Of a stretch of 64,000 nt of DNA, positions 11 through 49,940 are shown piece by piece. The notes under the pieces are model-generated. The model ran no database searches. It was not told where the DNA came from and saw only the letters and a list, made by a program, of their open reading frames with translations. How positions within the stretch are numbered: the first letter of the stretch is position 1; each line of letters starts with the position of its first letter. Position numbers and translations under genes: made by a program. The stretch comes from Escherichia phage EC128: the sequence record ON210139.1; one strand, 5' to 3'.

Positions 11-2188
11 ATGATTATCACCACTGAAAAAGAAACAATTCTTGGTAATGGTTCTAAATCAAAAGCATTTAGCATCACAGCATCTCCTAAAGTATTTAAA
101 ATTCTGTCATCTGATTTGTATACAAACAAGATTCGCGCAGTAGTCCGTGAATTGATTACTAACATGATTGATGCCCATGCTCTCAATGGAAATCCTGAAA
201 AATTTATCATTCAAGTTCCAGGACGATTAGATCCGCGATTTGTTTGTCGAGATTTTGGTCCGGGTATGAGTGATTTTGATATTCAGGGTGATGATAATTC
301 TCCTGGGTTGTATAATTCATACTTCAGTTCATCTAAAGCTGAATCTAATGACTTTATTGGCGGATTTGGTTTAGGTTCTAAATCTCCGTTTAGTTATACT
401 GATACGTTTAGTATTACTTCTTATTATAAAGGTGAAATTCGTGGTTATGTAGCTTACATGGATGGTGATGGTCCACAGATTAAACCTACATTCGTAAAAG
501 AAATGGGTCCAGATGATAAAACTGGTATTGAAATCGTAGTTCCAGTTGAAGAAAAAGACTTTAGAAACTTTGCTTATGAAGTTTCTTATATCATGCGACC
601 GTTCAAAGATTTGGCTATCATTAATGGTCTTGACCGCGAAATTGATTATTTTCCGGATTTCGATGATTATTATGGCGTAAATCCAGAAAGATACTGGCCT
701 GATCGTGGTGGATTGTATGCTATCTACGGCGGTATTGTTTATCCTATCGATGGTGTTATTAGAGACCGTAACTGGCTAAGCATTCGCAATGAAGTGAATT
801 ACATTAAGTTTCCAATGGGTTCACTTGATATTGCTCCATCTCGCGAGGCTCTTTCACTGGATGATCGTACTCGTAAAAATATTATTGAACGAGTTAAAGA
901 ACTCAGTGAGAAAGCATTTAATGAAGATGTAAAACGATTTAAAGAATCTACATCTCCTCGTCATACATATCGTGAATTGATGAAGATGGGGTATTCTGCT
1001 CGAGATTATATGATTAGTAATTCAGTCAAATTCACGACTAAAAATCTGTCATATAAAAAGATGCAGAGCATGTTTGAACCTGATAGTAAGTTATGCAATG
1101 CAGGAGTTGTGTATGAAGTAAATCTTGACCCTCGGCTGAAACGTATTAAGCAAAGCCATGAAACTTCAGCCGTTGCATCAAGCTATCGTCTGTTTGGTAT
1201 TAATACAACAAAAATTAATATCGTTATTGATGATATTAAAAATCGTGTTAATATTGTCCGTGGATTAGCACATGCGTTAGATGATAGTGAATTTAATAAC
1301 ACTTTAAATATTCATCATAACGAACGCCTTCTGTTTATTAACCCAGAAGTAGAATCGCAGATTGATTTACTTCCTGATATTATGGCGATGTTTGAAAGTG
1401 ATGAAGTTAACATTCATTATTTGTCAGAAATTGAAGCTTTAGTTAAAAGCTATATTCCAAAGGTAGTTAAAAGTAAAGCTCCTCGTCCTAAAGCTGCTAC
1501 AGCATTTAAGTTTGAAATTAAAGACGGGCGCTGGGAAAAAGAGGAACTATTTACACTTACGTCAGAAGCAGATGAAATTACTGGTTATGTAGCGTATATG
1601 CATCGTTCTGATATTTTCTCTATGGATGGTACTACATCTCTTTGTCATCCATCTATGAATATTTTGATTCGTATGGCTAATCTTATTGGCATTAATGAAT
1701 TTTATGTTATTCGTCCGCTTTTACAGAAAAAGGTAAAAGAACTCGGTCAGTGCCAATGTATTTTTGAAGCTTTGCGTGATTTATATGTAGATGCTTTTGA
1801 TGATGTAGATTATGATAAGTATGTAGGTTATTCAAGTTCAGCTCAACGATATATTGATAAAATTATCAAGTATCCTGAACTAGATTTTATGATGAAGTAC
1901 TTCAGTACAGATGAAGTTTCTGAAGAATATACACGACTCGCTAATATAGTTAGTTCATTGCGCGGTGTATATTTTAATGGTGGAAAAGATACCATCGGTC
2001 ATGACATCTGGACAGTAACTAATCTTTTTGATGTATTATCAAATAATGCTTCAAAAAACAGTGATAAAATGGTTGCTGAGTTTACCAAGAAATTCCGTAT
2101 TGTTTCCGACTTCATCGGTTATCGCAACTCTTTAAGTGATGATGAAGTTTCCCAAATCGCTAAAACTATGAAGGCCCTTGCGGCCTAA
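11..2188 (+). CDS. rIIA: rIIA protein (rapid-lysis / Rex-exclusion phenotype)
   Basis: 725-aa ORF preceded by SD GAGGAAATT; sequence and length recognised as T-even rIIA. Confidence 0.95.
2045..2070 (+). promoter_or_regulatory. candidate MotA-dependent middle promoter inside the rIIA 3' end, reading into rIIB
   Basis: MotA-box-like AATGCTTCA followed 11 nt later by TAAAAT. Confidence 0.3.
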
Positions 2189-2199
2189 TAAGGAAAATT

Positions 2200-3138
2200 A
2201 TGTACAATATTAAATGCCTGACCAAAAACGAATAAGCTGAAATTGTTAAACTGTATTCAAGTGGTAATTACACCCAACAGGAATTGGCTGATTGGCAAGG
2301 TGTATCGGTTGACACAATCCGTCGTGTTTTGAAAAATGCTGAAGAAGCTAAACACCCTAAAGTTACTATTAGCGGTGATATTACAGTTAAAGTTAATAGC
2401 GATGCAGTTATTGCTCCAGTTGCTAAATCTGACATTATTTGGAATGCATCTAAAAAATTCATTTCAATTACTGTTGACGGTGTAACTTATAACGCAACTC
2501 CTAATACTCATTCAAACTTCCAGGAAATTCTTAATCTGCTTGTAGCGGATAAGTTGGAAGAAGCTGCACAAAAAATTAATGTTCGTCGCGCTGTTGAAAA
2601 ATATATTTCCGGCGATGTTCGAATTGAAGGTGGAAGCTTGTTCTATCAAAATATCGAATTGCGGTCTGGTTTGGTTGATCGTATTCTTGACTCGATGGAA
2701 AAAGGCGAAAACTTTGAATTTTATTTTCCGTTCTTGGAAAATCTGCTGGAAAACCCAAGCCAAAAAGCGGTATCTCGACTCTTTGATTTCTTGGTAGCAA
2801 ACGATATTGAAATTACAGAAGATGGTTACTTCTATGCTTGGAAAGTAGTTCGTAGCAATTACTTTGACTGTCACTCAAATACCTTTGATAACAGTCCTGG
2901 TAAAGTAGTTAAAATGCCACGTACTCGTGTAAATGACGATGATACACAAACTTGTTCTCGTGGTCTGCATGTGTGTTCTAAATCTTATATTCGTCACTTT
3001 GGCAGTTCAACCAGTCGAGTCGTAAAAGTTAAAGTACATCCTCGCGATGTAGTATCAATTCCGATTGATTACAACGACGCTAAAATGCGTACCTGCCAAT
3101 ACGAAGTAGTTGAAGACGTTACTGAACAATTTAAATAA
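2200..3138 (+). CDS. rIIB: rIIB protein; reading frame interrupted by an in-frame TAA at codon 12 (2233-2235)
   Basis: SD AGGAAAATT + ATG at 2200 encodes MYNIKCLTKNE then TAA; the same frame continues open to 3138 and encodes recognisable rIIB sequence (ADWQGVSVDTIRRVL...); total length equals the 312-codon T4 gene. Confidence 0.8.
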
Positions 3139-3166
3139 GGGCTTCGGCCCTTAACTAAGGAAAATT

Positions 3167-3361
3167 ATGTTAGGTTATCAAGCACGAGTAAAAGAAGAAT
3201 ACGATCAATTAATGCTCAAAATTAATGCACTGAGTAAATTTTTAGAAAGCGCAAAGTTTCTAACAGTTAGTGCAGTTGAGCAAGAACTACTACTTTCACA
3301 GTTCATCTCAATGAAATCTTATGCTGAATGTTTAGAGAAAAGAATTGCACAATTCAAATAA
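3167..3361 (+). CDS. hypothetical early protein (64 aa)
   Basis: ORF with SD AAGGAAAATT ahead of ATG; bracketed by GGGCTTCGGCCC hairpins. Confidence 0.5.
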   Translation: MLGYQARVKEEYDQLMLKINALSKFLESAKFLTVSAVEQELLLSQFISMKSYAECLEKRIAQFK

Positions 3362-11156: not shown

Positions 11157-11930
11157 TTAAATCCAGGAACCGTAGATCGTGCCTGTTGCACCCCATGATG
11201 GTGAAGAACCGAATACCGCTCTACCTGGAGCACCACCGCCGGATCTAGATAAGTGATTACCCCATCCATCTCCACCCCGACCTCCAGCATCACCGCCATT
11301 GCCTCCGCCGAATTGGGAAGTGTAACCGGCACCGCCCGGGGCGTCATAACTAGCATTACCACCCGGCCAATTAACGCCGCCTCCGCCGATGCCAAATGGT
11401 CTACCACCACCGCCACCTGCTGTAGCATTTGGCGCCCAGCTATTCTGTAATGACACTGCACCACCACCACCGCCGCCTGATGCAATAACGCCATAGTTCC
11501 AAATACGAAGTCTTCCGCCGATATCATTTTGGATTACATCGCCGCCATTTGTGCCTGGGTTTCCGTTTACAGTACCGTTACCACCTCGTCCCCACATATG
11601 AACTCCACCATGAATATTCAAAGTAACATATTCATTTGGTGTATCTCCGTACATGAAGAATAAAGGAACATCTTTAGAATATGATACTAAATCTCCGGTG
11701 ATATTAAACACTATAGGTGCACTACCTGCCTCAAAACATCTATCTCGGAACCATTGACCATTGAAGTTATGGTCTGCTCCAAGTGTATGAATAATTTCTC
11801 TTGAGCGACCTGCAAATTGACTCATCCAGCAAGGAACACCCAATCTTAATCGTTGGGCCGCGCCACCCATCCAATTTTGTCCTGTATTAACTACTGCAGA
11901 CGATCCTACCCACGGTCCTGTTACTGCCAT
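11157..11930 (-). CDS. 38: gp38 tail-fibre adhesin, T2-type (glycine-rich motifs flanking variable segments)
   Basis: 257-aa ORF from ATG ([11 protein letters not shown]) with SD GGAGG; multiple poly-Gly blocks; longer than the 183-aa T4 gp38. Confidence 0.8.
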
Positions 11931-11961
11931 ATAAACCTCCAAGGGGCCGAAGCCCCTCTTA

Positions 11962-14900
11962 TTATTTTAACAATGATTTAACTAATGCTTTAAGTTCTTC
12001 AATTTCTGATTTAAGTTCTGCAATTTCTGCAGTATGCTCATTGATTGCAGCTGTATTTAAACCAATTACACCGTTATAGTTCAAACGAAGTAAAGCTTCG
12101 CCATCAGGGTCACCTTCAACTAATTCTGGTAAAATAGCTTGAACTTCTTGAGCAATTAAACCGGCGTTAGGTTCCCATTTCTGATTGCCTTCTTCATCTA
12201 GGCCTCGCTTCTGCATATAAGTGTAACCATTAATTTTGGAAAGCTTCTGAGAAGCATTTTCAAATTTAACAAGGTCTTTTTTAACACGAATATCAGAACG
12301 GACATAAACATCTCGAACAAACGTTGAATAACTATCATTTGCCTGAACGAGATGCCCATGAGAAACGATAGCTCTTCCAACTTCTGTCCAAAAAGCACCG
12401 GTTGAATCCCAAAGCCCAGGATGAGATTGATAGCCTGCTCCCCAGTTTGCAATATGTATACCATTGGCAACCATATTGATTCGGCCGTCACCACCATGAA
12501 CTAATCCGGTGTCATTATCACCAATAACGAGACATGGTCCAGTCCACACTGGGTCGCCACCGCCAGCCGATAATCTTGCTCCGGTTTGAACCATGTTAGG
12601 AACATACATAACTCCATTGTGGTGAAATTCATAGATAGCTTGTTGGTCGGAACCGTTTTCCTGATTACCTACACGGATAATACCTTGTGCCCATATATTA
12701 GGGGTACGGCGCATACCAAAATCAACGCCAGATATGTATCCTTCATTCGTAATAGCAGATTTTCCTTTAATAATAGGATAATAACTATCATTACCAACAT
12801 TACCAAAATCTACAAATATCGGAGCTTCTTGTCGCCATTGGTTTCCCCAATCGCCAGCCTGGTGCGCAGTCCATTGTGTACCGTTTATATGAAGGCGGTC
12901 TCTATTAAAATTAAATGTTCCTTGACCTTGAGGAGAAAGCGATATTTCGCCATTATTTGTTATGTATACACCACCCTGTGTAATGTAACTGTAAAAACCT
13001 AGACCGTTGTCGCCGCCACCTTTGCCTATATACCAGTTATTTGTACCACCTACATCACTACGGATATGTGATGAAGCACCTCCGCCAGCAGTTAAAACAA
13101 GAGCATCATTGCCTGCTGATAAAGTCAATTTACCAGTCATCGTGTCGCCTTCTTTAGAAACACGAGTAGCTATTGCATCGCGAATATTTGTGGTTTCTCC
13201 CGCAGAAGTAAACGATTTCCAAATATCTGAGAAAATATTACCATTACGAGCAATAGTAGCTTCACCGCCGCCGACTTGAACGTTATCGGGGAAATTAACT
13301 GTACCGTCTTGATTAAAACGAGACGTATGGCCTTGTGAACCATCTTCTTTTAAATGATGTAAAACAAATGTACCCGAATTAATTTCAGTACCTAAAGACC
13401 AAACAGCTTTACTGTTTAAAAACTTCTGTTTAACAATAGGATAATATTTACTTACTGCGTCATCATCGATTTCCTGGAAAATAGGAGCTGCTTGAACATA
13501 TTGAATATCATAACCACCAGCGCCAGCGCCGTGACCAGTAAATTTAATATAGCCGTTTGCTGCGAACGTATTGTAACTTGATTGTAAATCTGGAATAGTA
13601 ACTTTACCGGTATCTAAAGCCATACTAAACGGGCGAAGTGGACCGATATCGCCGTGTTTACCTTCACCGTAAGCAGTTGGAATAATATGAAGACTACCTT
13701 CTGAACGTCTAAAAATGGCTCCATAATCATTATTCCAAATACGAAGCGCATTCACAGCCCCAGATGAAATTTCGCCTGTTGTGTGAACTCCCCTATCTCC
13801 AGCAGTAACACCAGATGATTCAAATGAACCGTTAACGTTCATTTCTACTTCACCTGTTGTAAGTCTTTGAATATAGCTCATCCAACTAGTTGCATCAGAA
13901 ATTTCCATGACATTTTTACGATTACCTACATTAGGATTAGTAAACGTATTGCCCCAAACGGAAATTGTCATATTATCAACTGAACTAGCTCCGGTCGTGT
14001 TACCTCTAAACATCAGTGTAGAAGAATTATTTCTACCATCGATATTAACAGAACCGCCAATAACATCAATATTACCTGGAGTAACTAACAAACCGCCGTG
14101 AGTATTAATGTTTGTGGTACCCTTGCCGCGGAAATAATGATGATAGTTACCGCCTTGATAATATCCTAAAAGAGTCTGACCATCTCCAAACGCGTTATTA
14201 TCGTGATATGTCACGACAGTAGCGAGAGCATAGTTTTCAGTTGGAGGAGTAGTTAAATCGGTTCCGTTAGTAGAATATCCAGCTACAAATTTTCTTAGGC
14301 TAGTTGTTTCGCTGGGACTAAATAAAAATGTTCTTGTTCCATTGTTTACTGTATGAAAATATCCGTCCTGATGCCATTTTAGCCCGGTGTCATTATCACC
14401 AAGAGCAATTGAAGCAGTCCCTAATTCAGAGTATCCTTTAGAGCCACCCGGAAGACCTACAGAAATAGAATGACCGGCTTTCAATCCACCGGCCCAGTTA
14501 AACGACCAAAGATAAGTGTCTAAGCCATCTCCGGAATACCAGGTTATTCCGTCATTAACATTAACTTCGTGGAAAATACCTGCTCCTACAGCATTTCGCA
14601 TAACACGGAGGTGGTTAATAGCCGTTTCGCCTTCTGCCATTGGAGTGTTATTTGATAATGAATAGATATCATAATCGCCTGTCTTCTTCCCATTTGTAAT
14701 AACTTTATCGGTCAGAATTTGTGGAGACGAAATAGATTTCCATGCTGATACTTCAGGTGAAGTAAATAGGCCACTGCCTGAAAATGCATAAGTGCTTTCG
14801 TTACCAGCGGCGTAGTCTTGAACCCTGATATTAAGTACTTGTGTAGTTAAACCATCATTAGCCGGGGCATAAATGATTCCACGTTCGCGGCTATTGTTAT

Positions 14901-15273
14901 CGAAAAAACGAACATGCGCTGTACCTGAGCTTTTTGTAATAAGTTCTCCGCCCTCGGTCATAATTTGCCCGGCGGCAATAATATCGCGAGTTACTCGAGC
15001 AATACCAGTTAAATTAAAATTACCTGTCTGAGTGAAGACGCCATTTAAAGTATAATCGCCAGTTTGGTTATAATTGCCTGTATGAATAACATTCCCGTCA
15101 ATACTACCGCCTTTAGCAAAACCTAAATCAATAATATTTCCTTGGTCATCTTTAGTAAAAAGTACACGGTCTTTTAAGTTTATAGCCAATTCACCTTCGG
15201 CTAATACTGAAGCGGCAGGACGTGCTCCTGCAGTTTTGCTTCTTTTAAATTGTATTTGTTTTAAAGTAGCCAT
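11962..15273 (-). CDS. 37: gp37 long tail fibre distal subunit
   Basis: 1103-aa ORF; position and fibre-like repeats; C-terminal GLIAQEV...PELV motif resembling an intramolecular chaperone domain. Confidence 0.9.
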
Positions 15274-29611: not shown

Positions 29612-31866
29612 TTAATGTTATCAAAAGTAGTGGTGTTTCTCAGAGCTTTGACCCGCAAAAAATTATTAAAGTTTTATCTTGGGCAGCTGAAGGAACATCA
29701 GTAGATCCTTATGAATTATATGAAAATATTAAATCTTATCTCCGTGATGGAATGACAACTGATGATATTCAGACTATTGTCATTAAGGCCGCTGCGAATT
29801 CTATTTCGGTTGAAGAGCCTGATTATCAATATGTAGCTGCACGCTGTTTAATGTTTGCTCTTCGTAAGCATGTTTATGGACAGTATGAACCACGTTCATT
29901 TATTGACCATATTTCTTATTGTGTAAATGAAGGTAAATACGACCCTGAATTATTGTCAAAATATTCAGCAGAAGAAATTACATTTTTAGAATCAAAAATT
30001 AAGCACGAACGGGATATGGAATTTACTTATTCCGGGGCGATGCAATTAAAAGAAAAATATCTAGTTAAAGATAAAACCACTGGTCAAATTTATGAAACTC
30101 CACAGTTTGCATTTATGGCTATTGGAATGGCATTGCATCAAGATGAACCTGTTGATAGATTAAAACATGTTATCCGTTTTTATGAAGCAGTATCAACCCG
30201 ACAGATTTCATTGCCAACTCCTATTATGGCTGGTTGTCGTACTCCGACTCGACAGTTCAGTTCATGTGTTGTTATTGAGGCAGGTGATTCATTAAAGTCT
30301 ATCAATAAGGCTTCCGCTTCAATTGTTGAATATATCTCTAAACGCGCTGGAATTGGTATTAACGTTGGTATGATTCGTGCTGAAGGTTCTAAGATTGGCA
30401 TGGGTGAAGTACGCCATACTGGTGTTATTCCTTTTTGGAAACATTTTCAGACTGCTGTTAAATCATGCTCACAGGGTGGAATTCGTGGCGGCGCTGCTAC
30501 TGCTTATTATCCTATTTGGCATTTGGAAGTTGAAAATCTTCTCGTTTTGAAAAATAACAAAGGCGTAGAAGAAAACCGCATTCGTCACATGGATTATGGT
30601 GTTCAGCTGAATGATCTAATGATGGAACGATTCGGAAAGAACGATTACATTACTTTGTTCAGTCCACATGAAATGGGTGGCGAGCTTTATTATTCTTATT
30701 TTAAAGATCAAGACCGTTTCCGTGAATTATACGAAGCAGCAGAAAAAGACCCTAATATTCGTAAAAAGCGTATTAAAGCCCGTGAACTATTTGAATTGCT
30801 CATGACTGAACGTTCAGGAACAGCAAGGATTTATGTGCAGTTCATTGATAATACGAATAACTATACTCCGTTTATTCGTGAAAAGGCACCTATTCGTCAG
30901 AGTAACTTGTGCTGTGAAATTGCTATTCCAACAAATGATGTGAATAGCCCTGATGCTGAAATTGGATTGTGCACGTTATCTGCATTTGTGCTGGATAACT
31001 TCGATTGGCAAGACCAAGATAAAATTAATGAATTAGCAGAAGTTCAAGTTCGCGCTCTTGATAATCTGTTGGATTACCAAGGATATCCAGTTCCTGAAGC
31101 AGAAAAAGCTAAAAAGCGTCGTAACCTTGGTGTAGGTGTTACTAACTATGCAGCTTGGCTGGCAAGTAACTTTGCTTCTTATGAAGATGCTAACGATTTA
31201 ACACATGAACTATTTGAGAGATTACAGTATGGACTCATTAAAGCATCCATTAAGCTCGCCAAAGAAAAAGGACCTTGCGAATATTATTCAGACACTCGTT
31301 GGTCTCGAGGCGAATTACCTATCGACTGGTACAATAAAAAGATTAACCAAATCGCAGCTCCAAAATACGTTTGTGACTGGTCGGCGCTGCGGGAAGACCT
31401 TAAGCTCTTTGGCATCCGTAATAGCACATTATCAGCACTTATGCCATGTGAGTCATCTTCCCAAGTTTCTAACAGTACAAACGGTATCGAGCCTCCACGT
31501 GGACCAGTCTCTGTTAAAGAATCAAAAGAGGGCTCCTTTAATCAAGTCGTGCCCAATATTGAGCATAACATAGACCTTTACGACTATACATGGAAATTAG
31601 CTAAGAAAGGTAATAAACCTTATCTTACGCAGGTAGCTATTATGCTGAAATGGGTATGTCAATCAGCTTCGGCGAATACATATTATGACCCGCAGATTTT
31701 TCCAAAAGGAAAGGTTCCAATGTCAATAATGATTGATGACATGCTATACGGATGGTATTATGGCATTAAAAATTTCTATTATCATAATACCCGTGATGGT
31801 TCTGGTACTGATGATTATGAAATAGAAACTCCAAAAGCTGAAGATTGTTCATCCTGTAAATTATGA
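29602..31866 (+). CDS. nrdA: aerobic ribonucleotide reductase large subunit
   Basis: 754-aa ORF; recognised as T4 NrdA. Confidence 0.95.
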   Translation: MQLINVIKSSGVSQSFDPQKIIKVLSWAAEGTSVDPYELYENIKSYLRDGMTTDDIQTIVIKAAANSISVEEPDYQYVAARCLMFALRKHVYGQYEPRSFIDHISYCVNEGKYDPELLSKYSAEEITFLESKIKHERDMEFTYSGAMQLKEKYLVKDKTTGQIYETPQFAFMAIGMALHQDEPVDRLKHVIRFYEAVSTRQISLPTPIMAGCRTPTRQFSSCVVIEAGDSLKSINKASASIVEYISKRAGIGINVGMIRAEGSKIGMGEVRHTGVIPFWKHFQTAVKSCSQGGIRGGAATAYYPIWHLEVENLLVLKNNKGVEENRIRHMDYGVQLNDLMMERFGKNDYITLFSPHEMGGELYYSYFKDQDRFRELYEAAEKDPNIRKKRIKARELFELLMTERSGTARIYVQFIDNTNNYTPFIREKAPIRQSNLCCEIAIPTNDVNSPDAEIGLCTLSAFVLDNFDWQDQDKINELAEVQVRALDNLLDYQGYPVPEAEKAKKRRNLGVGVTNYAAWLASNFASYEDANDLTHELFERLQYGLIKASIKLAKEKGPCEYYSDTRWSRGELPIDWYNKKINQIAAPKYVCDWSALREDLKLFGIRNSTLSALMPCESSSQVSNSTNGIEPPRGPVSVKESKEGSFNQVVPNIEHNIDLYDYTWKLAKKGNKPYLTQVAIMLKWVCQSASANTYYDPQIFPKGKVPMSIMIDDMLYGWYYGIKNFYYHNTRDGSGTDDYEIETPKAEDCSSCKL

Positions 31867-31917
31867 TATAATTTGACTCATGGACGAGTCACTAACTATT
31901 AACTAAGAGGAAAATTT

Positions 31918-32593
31918 ATGAGCACAGTTTTTAATACAAATCCAGTTGATGTTTTAAAAGAACCTATGTTTTTTGGTTCAGGTCTTGGTATTGCGCGTTA
32001 TGATATTCAACGGCATCGAGTATTTGAAGAACTTACAGAGAAGTCCTTATCATTTTTCTGGCGTCCCGAAGAAGTAAACTTAATGATGGATGCTGCACAG
32101 TTTAATAAGCTTCCTCAGTATCAGCAGAATATTTTTACTAACAACCTGAAGTATCAATCACTTTTGGATAGCATTCAGGGTCGTGCACCGTCTGCTGTAC
32201 TTATGTCATTAATTTCAGACCCAAGCCTTGATACATGGGTTGCTACATGGACTTTTAGTGAAACTATTCACTCTCGTTCGTATACTCATATTATGCGAAA
32301 TCTTTATACCGATCCATCGAAGGTATTTGATGAAATTGTATTAGATGAAGCTATTATGAAACGAGCTGAATCCATTGGACGTTATTATGATGATGTCTTG
32401 GTTAAAACCCGTGAATGGGAAAATGCTAAAGAATTTGTAGAACTAGCTAAAGAATCTCCTGATGCCGACTTTCGTTTAAACCGAGCTATTAAACAAGAAG
32501 CCGAAGCTAAACGTGCTTTAATGAAGTCTCTTTACCTCTGTTTACACGTTATTAATGCCTTAGAAGCTATTCGTTTTTATGTATCTTTTGCGT
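31918..32593 (+). CDS. nrdB: ribonucleotide reductase small subunit, exon 1
   Basis: MSTVFNTNPVD...ALEAIRFYVSFA; frame closes immediately inside the intron; 5' splice site inferred after T 32593. Confidence 0.75.
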
Positions 32594-33684
32594 AAAATGC
32601 GCCTTTAAACGGTAACGTTTATCGAAAACTCCTTTAATTGCTGGAAAGTCCTTTATAGGAAAACTAGCAGCCAAGGTTTTGCTTGCACCTTTAATTAGTA
32701 TAATATAAATATGATTATACTTTTAAGAGGATGCACAATTGAACTATAGAAAAATTTGGATAGATGCTAACGGACCTATACCTAAAGATTCTGATGGAAG
32801 AACATACGAAATCCATCATAAAGACGGTAACCGTGAAAATAATGATTTAGATAATTTGATGTGCCTTTCTATACAGGAACATTATGATATACATTTAGCT
32901 CAAAAAGATTACCAGGCTTGTCATGCTATAAAGCTTAGAATGAAATATTCTCCTAAAGAAATTTCTGAATTAGCTTCTAAAGCCGCAAAATCTAGAGAAA
33001 TCCAGATTTTTAATATCCCTGAAGTACGAGCTAAAAATATTGCCTCTATTAAATCTAAGATAGAAAATGGTACATTTCATCTTTTAGACGGTGAAATACA
33101 GCGTAAATCTAATTTAAATAGAGTTGCATTAGGTATACATAATTTTCAACAAGCTGAGCATATTGCAAAAGTTAAAGAACGCAATATTGCAGCTATAAAA
33201 GAAGGTACTCATGTATTTTGCGGTGGTAAAATGCAGTCAGAAACTCAATCAAAACGGGTAAATGACGGTTCACATCATTTCTTGTCAGAAGATCATAAGA
33301 AAAGAACATCAGCAAAAACATTAGAAATGGTTAAGAACGGGACCCATCCTGCACAAAAAGAAATCACATGTGATTTCTGCGGTCACATTGGTAAAGGTCC
33401 TGGATTTTATCTAAAACATAATGACAGATGTAAATTAAATCCAAATAGAATTCAATTGAATTGTCCATATTGTGATAAGAAAGATTTATCACCATCAACA
33501 TATAAACGATGGCACGGCGACAATTGCAAAGCAAGGTTCAACGACTAGTCTTCGGACGTAGGGTCAAGCGACTCGAAATGGGGAGAATCCCTCTGGGATT
33601 GTGATATAGTCTGGTCTGCATAGTAATATGTAGCAGTTCATAAGAGAACGGGTTGAGAATTAGCGAGCTCAATCGAACATAACG
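32594..33684 (+). mobile_element. nrdB group I intron (about 1.09 kb) carrying a full-length HNH endonuclease ORF
   Basis: interrupts the conserved FYVSFAC/TFNFHKNMEIMEGNAKI region; the proposed junctions (exon ends T, intron ends G) restore an in-frame NrdB; exact boundaries are inferred. Confidence 0.6.
32739..33548 (+). CDS. I-TevIII: I-TevIII-like HNH homing endonuclease (intron-encoded, full length)
   Basis: 269-aa ORF; HNH motif EIHHKDGNRENNDLDNLMCLSIQEHYDIH and C-terminal Cys clusters; opens at TTG 32739 with SD AAGAGGA 7 nt upstream, no in-frame ATG. Confidence 0.75.
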   Translation: MNYRKIWIDANGPIPKDSDGRTYEIHHKDGNRENNDLDNLMCLSIQEHYDIHLAQKDYQACHAIKLRMKYSPKEISELASKAAKSREIQIFNIPEVRAKNIASIKSKIENGTFHLLDGEIQRKSNLNRVALGIHNFQQAEHIAKVKERNIAAIKEGTHVFCGGKMQSETQSKRVNDGSHHFLSEDHKKRTSAKTLEMVKNGTHPAQKEITCDFCGHIGKGPGFYLKHNDRCKLNPNRIQLNCPYCDKKDLSPSTYKRWHGDNCKARFND

Positions 33685-34187
33685 GTACCTTTAACTTCCA
33701 CAAGAATATGGAAATCATGGAAGGTAATGCCAAGATTATGAAGTTCATTGCACGTGATGAGCAGCTTCACCTTAAAGGCACTCAATATATTATTCGTCAA
33801 CTTCAATCCGGTACTGATGGTGATGAATGGGTTAAAATTGCTCAAGAGTGTGAACAAGAAGCAGTTGATATTTTCATGGAAGTTAACCGCCAAGAAAAAG
33901 ATTGGGCAGTTCATTTATTTAAAGATGGCGATGTTCCTGGATTAAATACAAATAGCATGTGGAGCTTTATTGATTACTTAACTGTATCTCGTATGAAACA
34001 GTGTGGTCTTCCATGCCCAATTACCGATGCTCCGGTTAAACACCCATATCCTTGGATTCGTGAATATCTTAATTCTGATAATGTTCAATCCGCGCCACAA
34101 GAAGTAGAACTGTCATCTTACCTTGTTGCGCAGATTGATAATGATGTTGATGATAAAGTTATGATGAGTTTTAAAAAATACTTTTAA
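33685..34187 (+). CDS. nrdB: ribonucleotide reductase small subunit, exon 2
   Basis: in-frame continuation (C)TFNFHKNMEIMEGNAKIMKFIARDEQLH... through the stop. Confidence 0.65.
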
Positions 34188-34214
34188 GGAGTGGGCCGCA
34201 AGGCCCATTTTATT

Positions 34215-49550: not shown

Positions 49551-49940
49551 ATGGAACTTATTACATAATTATTTGACGGCGCTTCGGCGCCGGTTGTTAA
49601 CTTAAATCCTAAGCATAAAATACCACAAATTTTTGCTATTCAAGCCGGCGAAGAAAGCGTGCTTCCTGGATTTAGATTTTGTACATACACCTCTGGCGGT
49701 GATACGAATAAAAACGTTAAGCCGGGCGATAAAATGATGCATATCGTAATGATAGGTGTTAATGAGAAATTATCACTGGTTAAGCTTAGAAACTTGGGTG
49801 GAAATCCAATTGGCGTCATTAATGCTGTTTTTGATACTGCTCTTCAAACAATGAAGCAGTATAAAATTGACGCATGCCTATTCCGCGTACTAAAAAGTTC
49901 AAAATGTAGTTTACAAGTCCCTCGTGTTGTGTTATAGTAG
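49551..49940 (+). pseudogene. truncated alt-paralogue remnant (homologous to the Alt N-terminal ~130 aa) with an in-frame TAA at codon 6
   Basis: MELIT*LFDGASAPVVNLNPKHKIPQIF...GFRFCTYTSGGDTNKN...QTMKQYKIDACLFRVLKS aligns with Alt residues 2-130; homology ends where the promoter repeat begins. Confidence 0.6.
49909..49938 (+). promoter_or_regulatory. early promoter; second copy of the 54-bp promoter and leader repeat
   Basis: GTTTACAAGTCCCTCGTGTTGTGTTATAGTAGTCTTACTGACATAACATGAGGA, one mismatch to 35806-35859. Confidence 0.5.

Follow-up and report, generated by a model that had tools for sequence, protein, structure and literature searches.

An ochre codon at position 12 of rIIB in the T4-like Escherichia phage EC128

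The rIIB gene of Escherichia phage EC128 (ON210139.1, 171,814 bp) has an ochre codon, TAA, at codon 12, in a position occupied by the glutamine codon CAA in T4 and in the close relatives that were aligned. The sequence considered here, called the window below, is a stretch of 64,000 nucleotides of one strand of this genome. We think it very likely that the stop is a spontaneous C-to-T mutation of recent date in a wild isolate, that it leaves the phage an rIIB null or strong hypomorph, and that it is tolerated through the accessory role of the gene. The source of EC128 was pond water from Copenhagen, enriched on Escherichia coli ECOR20; the phage was plaque purified at least three times, sequenced from a Nextera XT library on a MiSeq instrument at 83x coverage, and assembled with CLC software (PMC9583813).

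The rIIB gene and its premature stop

The gene starts at the ATG at 2200-2202, preceded by AAGGAAAATT. Its Shine-Dalgarno sequence, AAGGAA (2190-2195, plus strand), lies 4 nt before the ATG, and the duplex with the anti-Shine-Dalgarno sequence, at -6.2 kcal/mol, is typical of real starts in the window. The original prediction took this ATG to be the canonical rIIB start, and T4 bears this out: the T4 start (position 168903) matches, and the reference rIIB does not begin downstream of codon 12. The first 11 codons (2200-2232, plus strand) encode MYNIKCLTKNE, the sole product now possible from the canonical start, and are followed by TAA at 2233-2235, as both the sequence and its translation confirm. 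The other 300 codons and the normal TAA occupy 2236-3138 on the same strand, with no stop in the frame before the usual one at 3136-3138. The gene is full length at the DNA level, as had been claimed, and its span of 939 nt equals that of T4 rIIB (NC_000866, complement 167965-168903).

A codon-by-codon comparison with T4 rIIB gave 19 nucleotide differences, of which 17 are synonymous and two change a codon: C>T at 2233, which turns CAA into TAA (Q12*), and G>A at 2354 (R52H). The other 310 of the 312 codons match, and over its first 154 nt the gene departs from T4 only in the C>T change. When the window was searched with T4 RIIB by tblastn, residues 1-312 aligned at 99.4% identity with one in-frame stop. 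R52H, the one amino acid difference from T4 in the part of the gene past the stop, was rejected as a second private lesion, since 28 other phage records, including RB3 and RB5, have the same change; it is an ordinary natural polymorphism.

By homology and synteny the gene is a member of the rIIB family, with a frame that is not intact. The precomputed Pfam match to PF26926 (Phage_T4_rIIB) falls on the called product of 284 amino acids, and the gene lies directly downstream of rIIA and upstream of denB.1 and denB. The T4 gene (NP_049889.1, RIIB lysis inhibitor/membrane integrity protector) has the same length, start context, and neighbors, but has CAA at codon 12 and lacks the R52H variant, and the background in EC128 is not that of T4. 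Because codon 12 is TAA, EC128 rIIB as written reads as a nonsense allele and not as a functional copy. Immediately after the gene is a GC-rich hairpin, GGGCTTCGGCCC (3136-3153, unstranded), which gave a terminator-like score on the minus strand only in our scan and may act as a stem-loop after rIIB on the plus strand; denB.1, with its own Shine-Dalgarno sequence, comes after it.

Authenticity, age, and origin of the mutation

The stop was found in EC128 alone. With megablast, a 31-mer centered on the TAA had no match in 50,697 phage records; for a 31-mer so centered, only a record with the T can give a seed. With C in place of the T, the 31-mer matched 460 phage records, 415 of them at ≥99% identity. 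Likewise, the TAA version of a 24-mer had no match in IMG/VR, JGI metagenomes, or GTDB genomes, and the CAA version matched eight metagenome contigs. CAA is also present in all nine close relatives that were aligned. The earlier suggestion that the wild-type codon is CAA and that a single C-to-T change separates it from TAA is thereby confirmed by the T4 alignment and the 460 records, and CAA is the ancestral codon 12. The RIIA protein of EC128 has an exact copy on 10 other contigs, which offered a route to a wild-type sibling or parent; the four contigs compared all have CAA but are only ~98% identical in DNA, and none is a direct ancestor.

A difference of a single base in one isolate could be an artefact of sequencing or assembly, the phage itself having CAA, and an error of assembly had been raised as a possibility from the beginning. 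The TAA, however, is found in two different assemblies. Besides the CLC assembly deposited in GenBank, a Logan contig of 12.5 kb from SRA run SRR21280024 agrees with the window at all 6138 bases compared (100% identity), the TAA among them; it reaches beyond the window start and is therefore a separate assembly. From the sequence identity and the date, we infer that SRR21280024 represents the EC128 reads. The Illumina coverage of 83x also argues against a miscalled base, as does the condition of the other genes. Of 81 T4 proteins searched against the window by tblastn, 78 were matched, with in-frame stops in rIIB and alt.-1 only and no frameshifts detected in the 78 matched genes; among the 77 genes other than rIIB, which span about 52 kb, no other conserved gene is broken. 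A general regime of sequencing errors, for example miscalls at modified cytosines, is ruled out by the same result. Because the Logan assembly has the TAA and the window shows no sign of error elsewhere, an assembly or consensus error at this base is very unlikely, and we regard that concern as essentially excluded.

In the alt.-1 homologue (49551-49733) the stop falls at codon 6, and identity to T4 alt.-1 is only 87%. In the annotation of T4, alt.-1 is a decayed remnant of an old partial duplication of alt, and the EC128 copy is further decayed.

Downstream of the stop, EC128 rIIB differs from T4 by 17 synonymous changes and one missense change, and from Shigella phage SHFML-11 by 10 and one, respectively. 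Codon comparison with these two phages showed no second lesion in rIIB beyond codon 12. Since this part of the gene has the signature of purifying selection (17:1) and no second lesion, selection must have acted on it until very lately, and the nonsense mutation is very recent. It may have arisen during enrichment or plaque purification, or shortly before sampling. In T-even stocks r mutants arise at frequencies of 1e-3 to 1e-4 (PMC6832632), and single-plaque bottlenecks readily fix them. Fixation in EC128 probably took place in the course of isolation, through enrichment and the three single-plaque bottlenecks, or else in nature a short time earlier. The spread of the allele may have been aided by an r-type plaque or by a growth advantage, and the stock may be mixed at this base.

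The original prediction suggested another origin, a laboratory rII nonsense allele, and a classical T4 ochre allele could in principle have entered through use of a laboratory strain, contamination, or recombination. Ochre mutants classically arise by transition at CAA codons. Apart from the mutation, EC128 does not differ from T4 in the tract at 2009-2353, and rII alleles of long standing do persist in culture collections (PMC8594841). Hundreds of wild phages, however, match the same tract just as exactly, and it therefore does not point to recombination with a laboratory allele. EC128 is an environmental isolate, and its background is not that of T4. The rIIA gene differs from that of T4 at 59 nucleotides, in addition to the 19 in rIIB; identity to T4 is 98.3% in the rIIB region (2100-3200), where SHFML-11 is the closest relative at 98.9%; and the best relatives of the first 25 kb of the window are ~95% identical. 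The tail-fiber genes are unlike those of T4: gp37 is 34% identical to T4 gp37, and an open reading frame of 261 amino acids follows it in place of a T4-type gp38. By tblastn with the T4 proteins, T4-type gp38, mobE, and nrdB.1 are absent from the window. The identity in the rIIB region, the divergence of gp37, and these three absences rule out a T4 (T4B or T4D) background, and we find a laboratory source for the allele exceedingly improbable.

The tail-fiber protein of EC128 is URO83618.1. Its homing endonucleases are close to those of T4, at 100% identity for I-TevI, 99.5% for SegG, and 96.6% for I-TevIII. Relative to T4, the genome is a mosaic (window 11157-15273 and about 31863-34191).

Translation past the stop

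In our model of the mutant, the C>T change has turned Gln12 into an ochre codon, ribosomes that start at the normal ATG would release the 11-residue peptide, and little or no RIIB would be made. The loss of function would make EC128 an rIIB null or strong hypomorph. Two ways around the stop have to be weighed, the decoding of TAA itself and a restart downstream of it.

The stop could be bypassed, read through, or decoded by a phage ochre-suppressor tRNA, so that full-length RIIB is restored by programmed or compensated decoding. In T4, mutation can turn tRNA-Gln into an ochre suppressor. EC128 possesses the gene 60 bypass element of T4 and encodes eight tRNAs (PMC9583813). The stop itself, however, is not conserved as a programmed signal would be expected to be, with TAA in 0 phage records against CAA in 460, and in 0 metagenome contigs against 8, and it has no take-off and landing codon pair or obvious structure around it. 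The base after the stop is G, and termination is efficient in the context TAA-G. A tRNA that suppresses ochre codons would also read through most of the stops of the phage. No tRNA gene is present within the 64-kb window, the tRNA cluster lying outside it. Taken with the single-isolate distribution of the stop, these points leave recoding with hardly any probability.

A restart downstream of the stop is the other route, and the original prediction had suggested a leaky allele of this kind. Reinitiation at the TTG at 2284, or at a near-cognate codon, would give a truncated RIIB that keeps enough function. The beginning of the B cistron is classically dispensable, the r1589 deletion retains B function, and reinitiation is known in early rIIB. 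Early rIIB nonsense mutants can reportedly be slightly leaky, as is said of the work of Sarabhai and Brenner in 1967 and of Napoli, Gold and Singer in 1981. Since the first 154 nt of EC128 rIIB are those of T4 bar the mutation, the behavior of a T4 Gln12 ochre mutant should transfer to it. The TTG at 2284 (codon 29) is in frame, 49 nt past the stop, with an AGGA nearby. It had been named as the first in-frame candidate downstream, correctly, and it is also the GenBank start of URO83596.1, the 284-aa open reading frame at 2284-3138 (plus strand). It is the only plausible in-frame restart.

The signals for such a restart are nonetheless weak, and the leakiness that had been proposed is left without support from the sequence. 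After the stop, the frame has no ATG or GTG until codon 166; up to that point the TTG codons 29 and 44 are its only canonical alternative starts. Real starts in the window have a Shine-Dalgarno spacing of 3-8 nt and duplexes of about -5 to -8 kcal/mol; the AGGA before TTG 2284, at -4.3 kcal/mol, is only 1 nt upstream, too close to be a ribosome-binding signal at a usable distance. ATT15, CTG18, and TTG44 have no Shine-Dalgarno sequence.

A product that starts at codon 29 would also be damaged. The stop interrupts an N-terminal helix-turn-helix (HTH) domain of RIIB, codons 7-50 (2218-2349, plus strand), recognized by Pfam HTH_7 over residues 7-45 with 27.8 bits against a cut-off of 23.8; HTH_28 also matches the N terminus, and the matches are above or near the cut-offs. 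A protein beginning at Leu29 would lose half of this domain. The domain is conserved in homologues that are only 51% identical, and so the N-terminal part of RIIB, classically "dispensable," probably has a function in nature. Because the restart signals are weak and a Leu29 start cuts the HTH domain, the Q12* allele is expected to be null or strongly hypomorphic, although "null" may be too strong a word. We consider it unlikely that reinitiation yields a sufficiently functional RIIB. An r1589-like T4 was RexAB sensitive and "apparently hypomorphic," with rexAB supplied on a plasmid (PMC8594841).

Known rII mutants and consequences for EC128

The preferred reading, a recent loss-of-function allele, would explain the viability of EC128 through the accessory role of the rII genes: the allele would be tolerated because rIIA and rIIB are needed only on hosts with RexAB-type defenses. 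Both genes are nonessential without RexAB (bioRxiv 10.1101/2025.11.20.689424; PMC8594841), and in T6 early rIIB stops and frameshifts are viable and selectable (PMC10312443).

Three sets of mutants resemble EC128. The classical T4 rII ochre mutants of Benzer, Brenner, and Crick share with it a nonsense codon early in the B cistron that arose from CAA by a GC-to-AT transition, and the same phenotype, Rex sensitive and suppressible, is predicted for EC128; the classical mutants are in T4B or T4D, whereas the EC128 allele is in a wild isolate on an ECOR host. The T6 mutants that escape gasdermin and CARD defenses (PMC10312443) likewise have early inactivating rIIB lesions, five early frameshifts and one premature stop, in each case as the only change, and they are viable and RexAB sensitive. 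They were selected deliberately on a host expressing the defense, whereas EC128 has no documented selection and resembles them in lesion type only. The r1589-like rIIA-rIIB fusion of T4 from a culture collection (PMC8594841, S5 Fig) is, like the EC128 allele, an rII lesion that came to light only when the genome of a phage stock in use was sequenced, but it is a deletion that fuses the two genes in true T4, whereas EC128 has a point nonsense mutation in a new isolate. The EC128 allele thus adds a wild T4-like isolate to the carriers of rII nonsense mutations, the class of phage mutation that has been known longest. It does not belong to the classical collections of T4 alleles.

The T6 precedent raises the question of whether the loss of RIIB was itself favored. 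RIIB is a trigger of bacterial gasdermin and CARD defenses, for example the Lysobacter and Pedobacter systems (PMC10312443). If ECOR20 or a natural host had such an RIIB-triggered defense, selection for RIIB loss on ECOR20 would be possible, and EC128 would be a natural escape mutant, evading the defense at the cost of its resistance to RexAB. We hold this to be a doubtful possibility.

In the GenBank record of EC128, rIIB is a 284-aa "hypothetical protein" (URO83596.1) that starts at the TTG, an annotation that hides the nonsense state of the gene; both in use and in its annotation, the phage should count as an rIIB nonsense mutant. Its host-range, lysis-timing, and defense-sensitivity data should be read with the allele in mind, and RexAB sensitivity and a possible insensitivity to RIIB-sensing systems should be considered. 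The allele is otherwise an ordinary feature that opens no new biological question; it is a reminder that r-type lesions can be present in T4-like isolates that are "wild" and plaque purified.

The neighboring rIIA gene (11-2188, plus strand) is intact: its frame of 725 amino acids is open to the stop at 2186-2188, with no in-frame stops and 12 amino acid differences from T4. At codons 511-515 (1536-1557), T4 is one base shorter in an A-run (-1) and has an extra C (+1) ~20 nt later, a compensated frameshift that alters five residues. T4, with RNYLR, is the exception here; EC128, its sister isolate EC101, and a gut-metagenome contig all have EELFT. In EC101 (OL310488.1), rIIA is annotated as a misc_feature, "similar to rIIA lysis inhibitor." From this label a second rII lesion in the same study was considered and ruled out; the 725-codon frame is intact, and the label is an annotation quirk. 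Just upstream of the window start, EC128 has a gene 60 of the T4 type, with the GGA-TAG take-off and a 50-nt translational bypass gap, the sequence of which we take to be identical to that of T4. Gene 39 is separated from gene 60 by an open reading frame of 272 amino acids that is probably mobA-like.
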